In this document: piece by piece, positions 3,770 to 50,461 of the stretch
Position numbering within the stretch: position 1 is the first letter of the stretch
Layout of the letters: every line of letters begins with the position of its first letter
Assembly (NCBI GenBank): GCA_040767925.1
Contig: JAXGNN010000001.1
Coordinates: forward strand, 1,411,679-1,475,678
DNA length: 64,000 nucleotides
Origin: Christensenellales bacterium
Lineage (GTDB): Bacteria > Bacillota > Clostridia > Christensenellales > CAG-138
Direction: 5' to 3'
Made by a program: the position numbers and the translations under genes
Notes under the pieces: generated by a model
The model's database searches: none
What the model saw: the letters and a program-made list of their open reading frames with translations, nothing else
Told to the model about the DNA's origin: nothing

Positions 3770-3801
3770 TAATTGACAATTGACAATTGACAATTGACAA
3801 T
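3770..3801 (+). repeat. Heptamer tandem array (AATTGAC)x4
   Basis: TAATTGA CAATTGA CAATTGA CAATTGA CAAT, between the four-helix-bundle stop and the gyrA RBS. Confidence 0.95.
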
Positions 3802-4160
3802 CAAATTTTGTCCTTGGTTGATTTGACGATCGCCGTGAGCAACCTTACAAGCTCGTTGCAATCCGTCCATATGCCGCTGAATTCCTTATCCGTCAAATAA
3901 TCCGATTCATGGAGCAGCTCAAGCCAATATTCGGTCTCGACGGCCTCTTTGAGCGCGATGTTCATTTTGGAAAGGAAGTCCTTCCCGCTCTGACCCTGCA
4001 CCGCCTCGCGCACGTTCGCGCCGATGCTTGTGCCGCTCCTGACCAATTGCTTTGAGAGCACGAATTCATGCCGGTCTTTTAAAAGGAACTGATAGAGCTT
4101 GATCGTCCGCAGGGCAAACGTCTTGCTTTTCTCGACGATGACGTTGCTTCCTTCCTTCAT
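3801..4160 (-). CDS. Four helix bundle protein (23S rRNA-IVP / TIGR02436-like)
   Basis: KS..FA.R.IKLY..L....[22 protein letters not shown]...QS..DF.SKM.IALKEA.ET.YWLELL; GGAGG RBS before ATG 4160; lower GC than gyrB/gyrA. Confidence 0.92.
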
Positions 4161-4260
4161 GCTTCCTCCCAAATGCTCAATTGACCTTCGCCGGGCTTTT
4201 ATCCGATATGAATCGGTCCCTGCGGCGTCCCGCGTTTTATTGCTCCTTTTGCTTATATTG

Positions 4261-4306: not shown

Positions 4307-4461
4307 ATTTTCAATTGTCCATTATCAATTGTCAATTGCCCAATCCCGCCGCAGCGGCCGGTCCCCGATTGTCAATTGTCCATTATCAATTGTCAATTGC
4401 CCAATCCCGCCGCAGCGGCCGGTCCCCGATTGTCAATTGTCAATTATCAATTGTCAATTGC
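4307..4461 (-). repeat. About 2.5 tandem copies of a 61-bp unit containing three heptamer arrays
   Basis: Unit CAATCCCGCCGCAGCGGCCGGTCCCCGATTGTCAATTGTCCATTATCAATTGTCAATTGCC at 4341-4401 and 4402-4462, partial copy at 4307-4340; abuts the gyrB stop. Confidence 0.95.
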
Positions 4462-10456: not shown

Positions 10457-10470
10457 GGACGGGGCGGGGA

Positions 10471-10707
10471 TAATTGACAATTGATAATTGACAATGGGTT
10501 TAGGATGAAACGGCTTCCGCTTGAACGGTGTTCTGCGGGGGCTGCTTTTCATATGGGCGAGGATTCGCATTCCCGTAGGGGCGAATTCCCTCCCAAAACA
10601 AAACGGCCTCCGCCGAACGTCGTTCAAGCGGAGGCTGTTTCTTAGTTCAGTTCATTGTCAATTGTCAATTATCAATTGTCAATTGCCTTAATTGCCTTAA
10701 TTGCCTT
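10471..10707. repeat. Mirror-symmetric intergenic element: heptamer array, hairpin, central hairpin, inverted hairpin, inverted heptamer array, (AATTGCCTT)x3
   Basis: Arrays at 10471-10498 (+) and 10651-10687 (-); hairpins at 10508-10549 and 10601-10640 are approximate reverse complements. Confidence 0.85.
10601..10640. terminator. Intrinsic terminator-like hairpin between convergent mnmE and sortase genes
   Basis: AAACGGCCTCCGC-CGAACGTCGTTCAA-GCGGAGGCTGTTT. Confidence 0.7.
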
Positions 10708-11791
10708 AGTTCGTCGCCTTGAGCAGCATGTACATCCTCTGGTAGCTGTCGCCGGAGCTGTCGGCGCAGGTGACGAGCACCATGATCTTGTCGCTGGAAC
10801 TCATGGAACCGAGCGTCGCGCCCTTGTAGGCCGAGGTGCAGTAGCTCATCATGGTGTCGATCCACTGCTGCTTTTCGGAGCCGGTGCGATAGGACTGCAT
10901 GGCCGCGAACAGCTCGAGGTTCTTGCGCGTGGTGGAGGACTTGACGGTCGAGGTCGTGGTTTCGAAGAAGCCGACAAGTTCCCATTTGGTGGAACCGTTG
11001 TAGCTGATGTTGAACACGCTCGTCCGCGCGCCCGAGCAGTCGCGCTTGCAGTATTCGCAGCTGGACTTGCCGAGCCACGCGTTCTGGACGTGGTGCAGCT
11101 CGTGGAAGCCGAGGTTGGTCGTCTGCTTGAGCGCGGACTTCCTCATGTTGTGGCCGTAGATGACCGCGATTGGGTTGGTGAGGTAGCTCAGCGCGTAGAT
11201 GTAGTTCTTGCTCGAGGAATACGCGTTGTAGTAGAAATTGCCCTTCTTGTCGATGGCGTTGCAATAGATGTAGGTGTTGATGTTGGTGCCGTCGATCTGG
11301 ATGGAGCCCCAGACGTCGGCGGAGGTGCCGGTGTACGACGCGTAGACGAGCTTGCCCGCGGTCGTTCCGCCGGAGCCGCTGCCGCCGCTCTGCATCTTGA
11401 CGTAGGAGGCGTAGATCCAGCCGACGTAGCCGTTATAGCCGACCTTCCAGTACTTGCTGCTCGAGGTGTTGTCGAGGATGGTCACCTGCTTGCCGGAGGG
11501 GATCTGCTTGCAGCCGGAAACCTGGGCGCTGCTCGTGTCCGGGCCAGTGCGGAAGTTGCACTTCGCGGTCGTGACGCCCCATACCGTTGAAGTCTGCGAG
11601 GAGCCGCCGGAGCTGTTTCCGCCGGAGAGGCCGCCGCCCGATGTGGAGGAGCCGCCGGAAGAATCCGAACCGGTGCCTCCGGTAATGGTGAGCCCGTTCA
11701 TCGTGTGCGCCGCGAGCGAGGATGCGGGAACGAGCGCGAAGAGCATCAGGAGCGTCAGCGCAACTGCCAATACGCGAGTGGTTTTTTTCAT
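10706..11791 (-). CDS. Secreted SH3b-domain / class B sortase-like fusion protein
   Basis: Signal peptide (MKKTTRVLAVAL...SLA), Gly/Ser linkers, SH3b (NFRTGP...WKVGYNGYVGWIYASYV), sortase motifs IYGHNM, LVTC and downstream R. Confidence 0.75.
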   Translation of the reverse strand: MKKTTRVLAVALTLLMLFALVPASSLAAHTMNGLTITGGTGSDSSGGSSTSGGGLSGGNSSGGSSQTSTVWGVTTAKCNFRTGPDTSSAQVSGCKQIPSGKQVTILDNTSSSKYWKVGYNGYVGWIYASYVKMQSGGSGSGGTTAGKLVYASYTGTSADVWGSIQIDGTNINTYIYCNAIDKKGNFYYNAYSSSKNYIYALSYLTNPIAVIYGHNMRKSALKQTTNLGFHELHHVQNAWLGKSSCEYCKRDCSGARTSVFNISYNGSTKWELVGFFETTTSTVKSSTTRKNLELFAAMQSYRTGSEKQQWIDTMMSYCTSAYKGATLGSMSSSDKIMVLVTCADSSGDSYQRMYMLLKATN

Positions 11792-11844: not shown

Positions 11845-12405
11845 TCAATCCTGACTGCTTCCGGATCCGCCGCCGCCCTCCTTGGGCGCCGCCGCGCCGT
11901 CCTTCTCATCCTCCTCGTCGAACACGAACGCCGCGCGCAGGCGGTCGCCGCCGCCGTGCCCGGAACGCGCCGCTTCCTGCTTTTTGCGCGCTTCCTCGAG
12001 CGCCTTGCGGTCGGTGAGGACGATGTTCACCACGATGAGCGCGAGCATCGCCACGAGGCCGATAGCCCAGAGTACGGTGTTGATCGTGGCGTACTGAGCC
12101 GCCGTCAGGGCAAGCGCTTCGCCGTAGGCCGTGTCCGCGAGGAACTCGAAGGCGCTGTTGGCGAGGATGACGATGGATGCGAACGCGCACAACAGGCGCA
12201 TCACGAGGCGGTAGGTCTCCGGCTTGCACTTGGGGAACTCGTTGTGGATGAGCCGGCCCTTGCCCCGGATCGCCCCCACCATCAGGTAGACGGCGATGAG
12301 GGCCTTGAAGAGCACCATCACCAGGTTGGTTGAGCCTGCGGCGGCCTCCTCTGCCGTTGTGGACGCCGCGTCCATCGCGAGCCATGCGGATGTCAGGTAT
12401 TCCAT
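11845..12405 (-). CDS. Hypothetical membrane protein (3 TM)
   Basis: GGAG RBS before MEYLT; three hydrophobic segments, charged C-terminal tail. Confidence 0.7.
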   Translation of the reverse strand: MEYLTSAWLAMDAASTTAEEAAAGSTNLVMVLFKALIAVYLMVGAIRGKGRLIHNEFPKCKPETYRLVMRLLCAFASIVILANSAFEFLADTAYGEALALTAAQYATINTVLWAIGLVAMLALIVVNIVLTDRKALEEARKKQEAARSGHGGGDRLRAAFVFDEEDEKDGAAAPKEGGGGSGSSQD

Positions 12406-12500
12406 ATTGCTTCTCCGTTTCCAAGTATTGATTATCATACCATTCCGGAGGGCTTAATAAACCCCCCGGCGGCAAAATTCAAACAATGTTAACCAGTCAT

Positions 12501-22160: not shown

Positions 22161-22195
22161 CAATTGACAATTGGGAATTGACAATTGACAATGAA
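22161..22195 (+). repeat. Heptamer tandem array (CAATTGA-type)
   Basis: CAATTGA CAATTGG GAATTGA CAATTGA CAATGAA. Confidence 0.9.
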
Positions 22196-49279: not shown

Positions 49280-50206
49280 TCACACGCTGCCCCGCGCCGT
49301 GTAGTACGCGTCGCTCAGATAGCATTTGGAGAAACGCGCCGCGGTTTTGTTGCCCTTGCAGACGGCGAGGGTCAGGTCGATCGTGTACCACCGGTCGGTT
49401 TTGGAATCGTACACGCTGTTCCACGCGTGGTAGCCGTTTATTTTGGTGCTGTAGCCCTTGACCAGCTTGCACGGGATGCCCTGCGCGCGGCACATCGCCG
49501 CGAAGAGCGAGGCGAAGTCGTAGCAGACGCCCTTCTTGTTGGACAGGATGCTCGCGGGGTTCGGCGTGTAGCTCGTGATCTGGCCCGAGATGACCTTGTT
49601 GGCGAAGTCGTAATCGTATTTGAAGTTCTTGGCGACGTAGTTGTAGAGGGCGAGTATCTTCGCCTGGTCGCTCCGAAGGTCCTTGCACAGGGAGGCCGCC
49701 TTTTTGGAGACGGAGTCGTTCGCGCTGAAGGAAATCTCCCCGACGCTGCGCAGGTACTGCGGATACGCCGCCCCGGCCGCGCCCGCGGCCGGGCCCGCCG
49801 GCGTCGCGGGGCCGATCATCGCCGTGAAGGACGCCTGCGCGACGGTTACATAGCTGCCGCCCGCCTTCTTGAACAGCGCCGCCGTATATGAGCCGCTGCC
49901 CCCGGAAAGCTCGAGCGTGAGGGTTTTGCCCATGGTGTAGCTGTAGTAGGACCAGCTCCCGCCGTTGAAGCAGATTCCCGCGCGCATCGCGGCGGACGTG
50001 CCGTCGCTGTACCGGAGGGTGATGTATCCCTGGGAGGCCGTCGCGTAGTCGATGTAGTTTCCGCCGCTGCCGCTTCCGCTCCCGGCTCCCGAAGCTTCCC
50101 CGCCCGAGACCGTGAGGTTCGCGGCCAGCGCGCCCTGCGGCGCGGCGAGCGAGAGCGTGAGGACGAGCGCGAGCAGCAGCGCGCTTCTTTTGATGAGTTT
50201 TTTCAC
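49280..50206 (-). CDS. Secreted transglutaminase-like (Cys-His-Asp) domain protein
   Basis: GTG start after GGAGAAAGG, signal peptide (..ALA-A), GVCYDFASLFAAMCRAQGIP, HAWN, IDLT. Confidence 0.88.
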   Translation of the reverse strand: MKKLIKRSALLLALVLTLSLAAPQGALAANLTVSGGEASGAGSGSGSGGNYIDYATASQGYITLRYSDGTSAAMRAGICFNGGSWSYYSYTMGKTLTLELSGGSGSYTAALFKKAGGSYVTVAQASFTAMIGPATPAGPAAGAAGAAYPQYLRSVGEISFSANDSVSKKAASLCKDLRSDQAKILALYNYVAKNFKYDYDFANKVISGQITSYTPNPASILSNKKGVCYDFASLFAAMCRAQGIPCKLVKGYSTKINGYHAWNSVYDSKTDRWYTIDLTLAVCKGNKTAARFSKCYLSDAYYTARGSV

Positions 50207-50228
50207 AGGGTAAATTCCTTTCTCCAAA

Positions 50229-50312
50229 TTCGGCAGCTGGCTGTCCTGCGCCCTAAGGCGTTTAGACCCTGTAGCTTTGCGGCGCCGCCTTTCGGCGGCT
50301 GTGCCCTTTCGT
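50229..50312 (-). ncRNA. c-di-GMP-I (GEMM) riboswitch, proximal copy
   Basis: GGGCACAGCCGCC-GAAA-GGCGGCGCCGCAAAGCTACAGGGTCTAAACG...GACAGCCAGCTGCC. Confidence 0.9.
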
Positions 50313-50376
50313 CCGGGGAAATCCCCCGCGCTGTCCGGAACCTTCCTTAATTTTGAGATAACAAAAAGGACCTCGT

Positions 50377-50461
50377 TTCGGCAACTGGCTGTCCTGCGCA
50401 CTAAGGCGTTTAGACCCTGTAGCTTTGCGACGCCGCCTTTCGGCGGGTGTGCCGGTTCGTC
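50377..50461 (-). ncRNA. c-di-GMP-I (GEMM) riboswitch, distal copy
   Basis: CCGGCACACCCGCC-GAAA-GGCGGCGTCGCAAAGCTACAGGGTCTAAACG...GACAGCCAGTTGCC. Confidence 0.9.

Follow-up and report, generated by a model that had tools for sequence, protein, structure and literature searches.

An exported SH3b protein with a class B sortase-like domain in Christensenellales-type Clostridia

In the sections consulted of two papers, sortases appear as enzymes held at the membrane, from where they pass proteins on to lipid II (PMC5148588, PMC12445088). What, then, is the role of a protein that resembles a class B sortase, carries an SH3b domain and is likely to leave the membrane? Its gene lies at 10706-11791 on the minus strand of the window (the whole stretch of 64,000 nucleotides that was analysed, from a Christensenellales bacterium), and encodes an exported 361-aa protein (P0001) for which relatives were found. 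The initial annotation had proposed a released, wall-targeted sortase that could anchor, re-link or shed three proteins with sorting signals encoded at 50.7-57.3 kb.

Protein layout and fold of the enzyme domain

The 361-aa frame is single and open and is closely preceded by a purine-rich ribosome site; a search for promoter-like sites immediately upstream of the gene gave none. In one study, the metatranscriptome contigs of two runs span almost all of the gene; in another, a single run contributes a 242-base piece of it. This is a weak hint of expression, as the contigs carry neither level nor strand and DNA may be present.

The protein begins with a predicted type I signal peptide (residues 1-27; 11711-11791, minus strand like all parts of this gene), with a basic start, a hydrophobic core, Pro22 and SLA-A at 25-28, and no lipobox cysteine. 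Judged from sequence and hydropathy, it is likely cut after Ser-Leu-Ala and the protein freed from the membrane. Consistent with the supposed release, no membrane anchor is visible past the signal peptide: the sole hydrophobic stretch is N-terminal (best 19-residue mean 2.28), and past residue 28 the best value is 0.95. A Gly/Ser-rich linker follows at about residues 37-68 (11588-11683), then an SH3b domain at residues 79-132 (11396-11557; Pfam SH3_3, E 9.5e-9, 35.7 bits, cut-off 27), a short Gly/Ser linker at residues 134-145 (11357-11392) and the class B sortase-like domain at residues 146-361 (P0121; 10709-11356). The signal peptide, linkers and SH3b domain listed in the initial annotation are thus all present in the translation, as are its motifs WGSIQIDGTNI, IYGHNM (with His214), CEYCKRDC (Cys245, Cys248 and Cys252), LVTC (Cys342) and Arg352.

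SH3_3 is listed as peptidoglycan-binding in the part of the source consulted (PMC5817068). From this family function and the domains that accompany SH3b in the same genome, we predict that the SH3b domain binds peptidoglycan and holds the enzyme on the wall. The seven other SH3b proteins of the genome carry SpoIID (two), YkuD, Hydrolase_2, GH18 or PG_binding_1 (one each) or SH3b only (one), and four of them (both SpoIID proteins and those with YkuD and Hydrolase_2) have known peptidoglycan-acting domains.

The enzyme domain is hard to recognize from a single sequence. Pfam Sortase stays below its cut-off (E 0.22 for the whole protein, 0.052 for the domain alone), so that of the two family models named in the initial annotation, SH3_3 scores over its cut-off and Sortase does not; NCBIfam gives no match to the domain at E<=0.1, a PDB search with the 361-aa protein returns SH3 domains only, and full-length single-sequence fold prediction reaches a pLDDT of 34. 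A profile built from an alignment of 26 enzyme domains from related genomes (A1) matched 15 class B sortase sequences in the PDB, with E-values from 3e-19 to 4e-8. Seventeen of the 26 relatives match the class B family model TIGR03064 (cut-off 153.75 bits), at best with E 1.5e-24; an RCC1-type paralog scores 41.7 bits. The predicted model of the domain built from the A1 alignment has a pLDDT of 92. Searched with Foldseek, it has class B sortases in each of the top 18 rows, the best at E 2.2e-9; in a wide structural search the best match is C. perfringens SrtB (5b23; Z 16.4, rmsd 2.9, 165 aligned residues), and all 18 rows with Z of at least 8.0 are sortases. A language-model atlas search with the domain likewise returned sortase clusters.

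His214, Thr341, Cys342 and Arg352 are intact, and in the alignment they fall on the triad positions of ordinary sortases. Class B enzymes place these residues at the ends of strands 4 and 7 and the beginning of strand 8; here they lie within predicted strands or after them. On its predicted structure the enzyme domain has a class B sortase fold, as the initial annotation had claimed, and by all structural tests of this model it would be a sortase-type cysteine transpeptidase. We nevertheless do not file the protein as an ordinary SrtB, because it misses the family score and probably lacks a membrane anchor. YkuD-type L,D-transpeptidases (PF03734), which carry an HxX14-17C motif, were considered and are very unlikely: sortase is the best match, His and Cys here are 128 residues apart, and neither YkuD nor NlpC/P60 catalytic folds appear among the Pfam and fold search matches.

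We compared the protein with class B structures from C. perfringens, C. difficile (6kyc, 5gyj, 4ux7), S. aureus (1ng5, 4lfd), B. anthracis (2oqz) and S. pyogenes (Spy0129, 3psq), and with TIGR03064. It shares with them the fold and the His-Thr-Cys-Arg set, and most of its relatives also have the N-terminal class B motif. Unlike them, it is only about 12-21% identical in sequence, falls below the family cut-off, has no anchor past the signal and is fused to SH3b. Its relatives further differ from class B sortases in an invariant Arg217, an HxLHHxQ helix, an optional His/Cys insert, loss of the triad arginine in several lineages, and the lack of a linked substrate gene.

Range and conserved residues of the subfamily

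Searched alone, the enzyme domain matched 11 of 301 genomes of the order: the source genome and 10 of the 14 others of its family, with none among 286 from other families. Profile A1 matched 105 of 150 family genomes at E<=1e-10; nine with best E between 1e-10 and 1e-17, the range of ordinary SrtB, were removed, leaving 96. At E<=1e-22 none of 400 genomes from elsewhere in the phylum matched. The domain defines a subfamily that has no name and, among the genomes searched, occurs in a single bacterial family. The names that relatives bear at the source point to uncultured Christensenellales-type Clostridia, and near-identical DNA was found in digester and sludge runs. A genome-wide survey of sortase domains is said to have appeared in J Microbiol in 2019. 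In the full-text literature, outside which most subscription journals lie, we found no paper on SH3b-fused or Christensenellales class B sortases, and this conserved variant of the class is real and apparently undescribed.

For a closer view, 126 loci were picked from the higher-scoring matches, and 118 distinct domains taken from them; architectures were called by hydropathy and a lipobox rule, with 10 hand corrections. Forty-eight members start with a type I-like signal and 65 were called as lipoproteins, one of them uncertain; the remaining five are incomplete. The combination of signal peptide, SH3b and sortase-like domain recurs in dozens of genomes: one to six SH3b copies occur in 46 of the 48 signal-peptide members, and in only four lipoproteins. 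A small-x-Ala pattern follows the hydrophobic core in 47 of 47 signal-peptide members, preceded by Pro in 34, and the same pattern is seen in the exported sorting-signal proteins of the genome. Since members are either lipoproteins or carry a signal peptide and SH3b, the distribution suggests that SH3b replaced a lipid anchor within a sortase lineage. The four SH3b-bearing lipoproteins all branch beside the signal-peptide clade (support 89), and three share the membrane-gene locus of the SH3b form described below. Tentatively, SH3b may have been gained first and the lipid anchor dropped afterwards; the order is tentative because it was read from a fast tree whose outgroup is long.

In a Pfam scan of 61 representatives, most of the long lipoprotein members had RCC1-like repeats, in many cases together with a dockerin-like segment. 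The source genome encodes one such paralog (G000:C2:476655-478790; L026, L140), in which the same enzyme domain is preceded by a lipoprotein signal, RCC1-like repeats and a dockerin-like segment; it lies downstream of greA- and lysS-like genes, and the long form is widespread in the family. Four tandem lipoprotein paralogs, each beside an intact copy, lack the catalytic His and Cys (L029:377-1360, L053:2334-3302, L056:2336-3265, L084:3430-4368) and are possible pseudo-enzyme partners. One further signal-peptide and SH3b protein (L124:3483-4361) has an ordinary-type sortase B motif and does not belong to the subfamily; its gene comes immediately after that of a member.

The subfamily has a signature of its own, set just after the catalytic histidine. 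His214 is present in 113 of 118 members, and the following Asn215 and Arg217 (the three within 11141-11152) in all 118; His230, His233 and Gln236 occur in 114, 115 and 116. Three ordinary-type sortases aligned with them share Asn215 and lack both Arg217 and Gln236. The helix with His230, His233 and His234 and the insert with Cys245, Cys248 and Cys252 (together 11036-11104) form a predicted metal site. His234 is present in all 82 members with at least two insert cysteines and in none of the 36 others, and all 82 bearers of the insert retain His230. On the tree, this His234-Cys trait changes five times, and its three independent pairs are all concordant, numbers too small to reach significance (p 0.25). 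A His-x3-His next to a Cys-x2-4-Cys is a known zinc-site pattern, and because the helix here adjoins such a loop, the sequence suggests a zinc site. The insert itself is unlikely to be catalytic, being optional among members.

The triad arginine varies among near relatives. Thr341 and the catalytic Cys342 (10766-10771) are found in 116 and 114 of 118 members, and Arg352 (10736-10738) in 105. The arginine is kept in 64 of 65 lipoproteins as against 37 of 48 signal-peptide members, all of which retain the catalytic His and Cys. Within the 22-row clade nearest to and including the 361-aa protein, half of the rows (11/22) have Lys, Ser or Gly instead, and His and Cys are present in 22/22; the 361-aa protein keeps its arginine despite these losses in near relatives. 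Among 120 listed database homologs, a redundant set, 108 have Ser at this position. In B. anthracis SrtB the arginine is reported to stabilise the sorting peptide in its bound state, the oxyanion being stabilised instead by the Thr before Cys and by backbone amides, and the Ser before Thr-Cys touches the motif (PMC11987632). With the arginine variable, His and Cys constant, and a sorting-peptide binder at this position in B. anthracis, the SH3b clade looks as if it conserved the catalytic chemistry and relaxed its hold on the sorting motif. Just before Thr-Cys, the three aligned ordinary-type sortases have Ser, whereas most subfamily members have a hydrophobic residue; in the PDB alignment, C. 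perfringens SrtB shows Ile at this place.

Gene neighbourhood and candidate substrates

In all six long loci the order is murG (divergent), an ATPase gene, cysS, a small membrane-protein gene and the SH3b-sortase gene. The small membrane-protein gene (11845-12438, minus strand) is a conserved upstream neighbour, found upstream of 40 of the 48 SH3b-type members. Its product has a conserved acidic C-terminal motif, with no convincing Pfam or NCBIfam name. We considered it as an obligate partner of the enzyme and rejected this, as the gene occurs in 140 of 150 family genomes, including 53 of the 54 that lack the enzyme; for the same reason it is family-wide with a role of its own, which leaves room for a facultative interaction. 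No such gene was seen upstream of the long lipoprotein members (upstream DNA was sufficient for 13 of them and insufficient for 21).

Immediately downstream of the gene, at 10469-10684, an inner 42-base inverted repeat is flanked by inverted arms that consist of 7-base repeat runs. The 7-base repeats recur at 133-156, 3771-3801, 4314-4459 and 22176-22192, with 19 pattern matches against 0.01 expected in the window, and one cluster flanks a four-helix-bundle gene (3801-4172, TIGR02436). Four-helix-bundle genes of this kind are associated with 7-mer repeats.

Can the substrates be named? The three sorting-signal proteins at 50.7-57.3 kb do exist, with SPSTG, APQTG and PPQTG tails, and an exported transglutaminase-like protein (49280-50401, minus strand; Pfam E 7e-22) is transcribed away from them. 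The specific tie to these proteins drawn in the initial annotation finds no support: they lie 39-46 kb away and are three of 15 xPxTG-tail proteins, mostly PPQTG/APQTG, spread over all three contigs of a genome that also has five ordinary sortases. A profile of 14 of these tails found no sorting-signal gene in the 126 loci, with flanks of 0.1-6 kb. In one relative, about 18 neighbouring genes with sorting-signal tails, most of them 350-420 codons long, stand together (G305:C11:10846-34139).

The five ordinary sortases comprise two of class B, one class F-like and two class D-like (one of these two was scanned). The class B pair, in tandem at G000:C1:840031-842047 (L003, L139), scores 160 and 154 bits with TIGR03064, over and at the cut-off, and has lipobox-type signals with no transmembrane anchor, and Pro/Thr stalks, like the lipoprotein members of the subfamily. 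Neither has SH3b or the signature of the subfamily, and the tree places both outside it. The initial annotation had taken an uncleaved N-terminal anchor as the rule for sortases. That premise fails in this genome, where ordinary class B enzymes carry lipobox signals, and signal cleavage itself is thus not odd; what does remain odd in the 361-aa protein is the probable loss of the membrane anchor.

We also asked if the subfamily is the sole sortase of some genomes. This was rejected: all 39 candidates (subfamily present, no strong TIGR03064 match) have another sortase over the Pfam cut-off, class F-like in 10 of the 11 tested. The tail profile from the source genome matched 64 of 96 subfamily-bearing genomes and 8 of 54 without the subfamily, a difference that by itself favours a link. 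This co-occurrence is confounded by kinship: TIGR01167 matches 127 of 150 family genomes, among them every one of the 19 from genus g165, in which no subfamily member was found. TIGR03063 is too insensitive to help, matching 17 of 150 genomes and missing the source genome. The data neither require nor exclude xPxTG-tail proteins as substrates.

Possible functions in the wall

The reading that we put first, tentatively and at somewhat less than an even chance, is that the 361-aa protein is a released, SH3b-held cysteine enzyme derived from sortase B, which attaches, re-links or cuts loose xPxTG proteins at stem peptides of the finished wall. Freed from the membrane and predicted to be held on the wall by SH3b, the enzyme could act on two kinds of bond: the sorting motifs of precursors at the membrane face, which its long linker would bring within reach, and the Thr-to-wall bonds that hold previously anchored proteins. 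The outcomes would be attachment, re-linking or shedding at the mature wall. Class B sortases as a rule cut a sorting motif after Thr and link it to a wall amine or a pilin lysine. In the sections consulted, C. difficile SrtB, whose (S/P)PxTG motif is akin to the tails of the source genome, cuts SPKTG and joins it to meso-DAP, and hydrolyses even with an acceptor present; SH3 is mentioned there for substrates, not for the enzyme (PMC4371152). As that enzyme both ligates and hydrolyses SPKTG, all three outcomes would be known chemistry. The lipoprotein members, with their near-constant arginine, are built like the ordinary lipid-anchored SrtBs of the genome, and the place of the SH3b lipoproteins next to the signal-peptide clade fits an anchor swap within a sortase lineage. 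The predicted fold, the intact catalytic set and the 15 xPxTG-tail proteins of the genome also speak for this reading. Against it stand the arginine replaced in 11 of 48 signal-peptide members, the mostly hydrophobic residue before Thr-Cys, the absence of sorting-signal genes from the 126 loci, and the ordinary sortases at hand.

The same observations can be read in another way, which we consider rather unlikely: a sortase fold repurposed for peptidoglycan itself, in a secreted enzyme that SH3b directs to the wall and that acts as transpeptidase or peptidase on stem peptides and cross-links, with no protein cargo. Signal peptide, one to six SH3b domains and one catalytic domain is the plan of the wall enzymes of this genome, and the protein resembles other secreted SH3b wall enzymes (SpoIID/LytB-like, YkuD and Hydrolase_2 proteins, and NlpC/P60 in C. 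difficile) in its signal, SH3_3, linker and single catalytic domain. It differs from them in that this domain is a predicted sortase barrel, with no Pfam match to those families at E<=1. Repeated loss of the arginine with His and Cys constant in the 22 nearest relatives, the new conserved patch after the catalytic His, and a housekeeping locus with divergent murG and no substrate gene all speak for a peptidoglycan enzyme. Here too there are counterweights: murG is about 3.6 kb off, past the membrane gene, cysS and the ATPase gene; most members keep the arginine; the genome already has a SH3b-bearing YkuD L,D-transpeptidase; and the literature searched, with most subscription journals outside it, gave no precedent for a sortase fold acting on peptidoglycan alone. 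A bolder history of this kind, also unlikely in our estimate, is a lineage of gut and digester Clostridia that swapped its lipid anchor for SH3b, gained a zinc insert and a new pocket, shed the arginine, and came to cross-link or cut peptidoglycan as a sortase-fold transpeptidase or autolysin.

We think it improbable that the enzyme serves other cargo, such as secreted or surface-layer proteins with no membrane tail, or itself, cross-linking them to the wall or to each other. A released enzyme would meet released proteins more easily than membrane-held ones, loss of the arginine and of the motif-contacting Ser would imply a changed donor pocket, and the RCC1-like propellers and dockerin-like segments of the paralogs could select cargo; set against this, we found no candidate cargo or motif, and no linked gene family besides the membrane gene. 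More doubtful still is an ordinary, membrane-held accessory class B sortase, with its N-terminal helix uncut and SH3b only helping to find the wall. Small-x-Ala is frequent by chance, cleavage is read from the sequence, and some subfamily members are named "class B sortase" at the source. The pattern is, however, found in every signal-peptide member assessed, mostly with its preceding Pro; scores lie far below the TIGR03064 cut-off, and in a separate search near-full matches of the subfamily reach about 170 bits or more, against 85 or less for ordinary SrtB. Finally, a non-catalytic wall-binding or scaffold protein using the sortase fold as a ligand binder is very improbable, for although the four tandem paralogs without His and Cys keep most of the subfamily patch, the 361-aa protein and all 48 signal-peptide members keep both residues.

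With and without arginine, with and without metal insert, lipid-held and SH3b-held, and with dead paralogs, the subfamily offers a set of natural controls, and a naturally soluble sortase of new specificity may find use in protein ligation. Should the peptidoglycan reading prove true, these bacteria would possess a new kind of wall cross-linking enzyme. If, as we tentatively prefer, the protein is a soluble, wall-tethered sortase, sortase chemistry would take place in the finished wall, where anchored proteins could be edited or shed without a dedicated protease.
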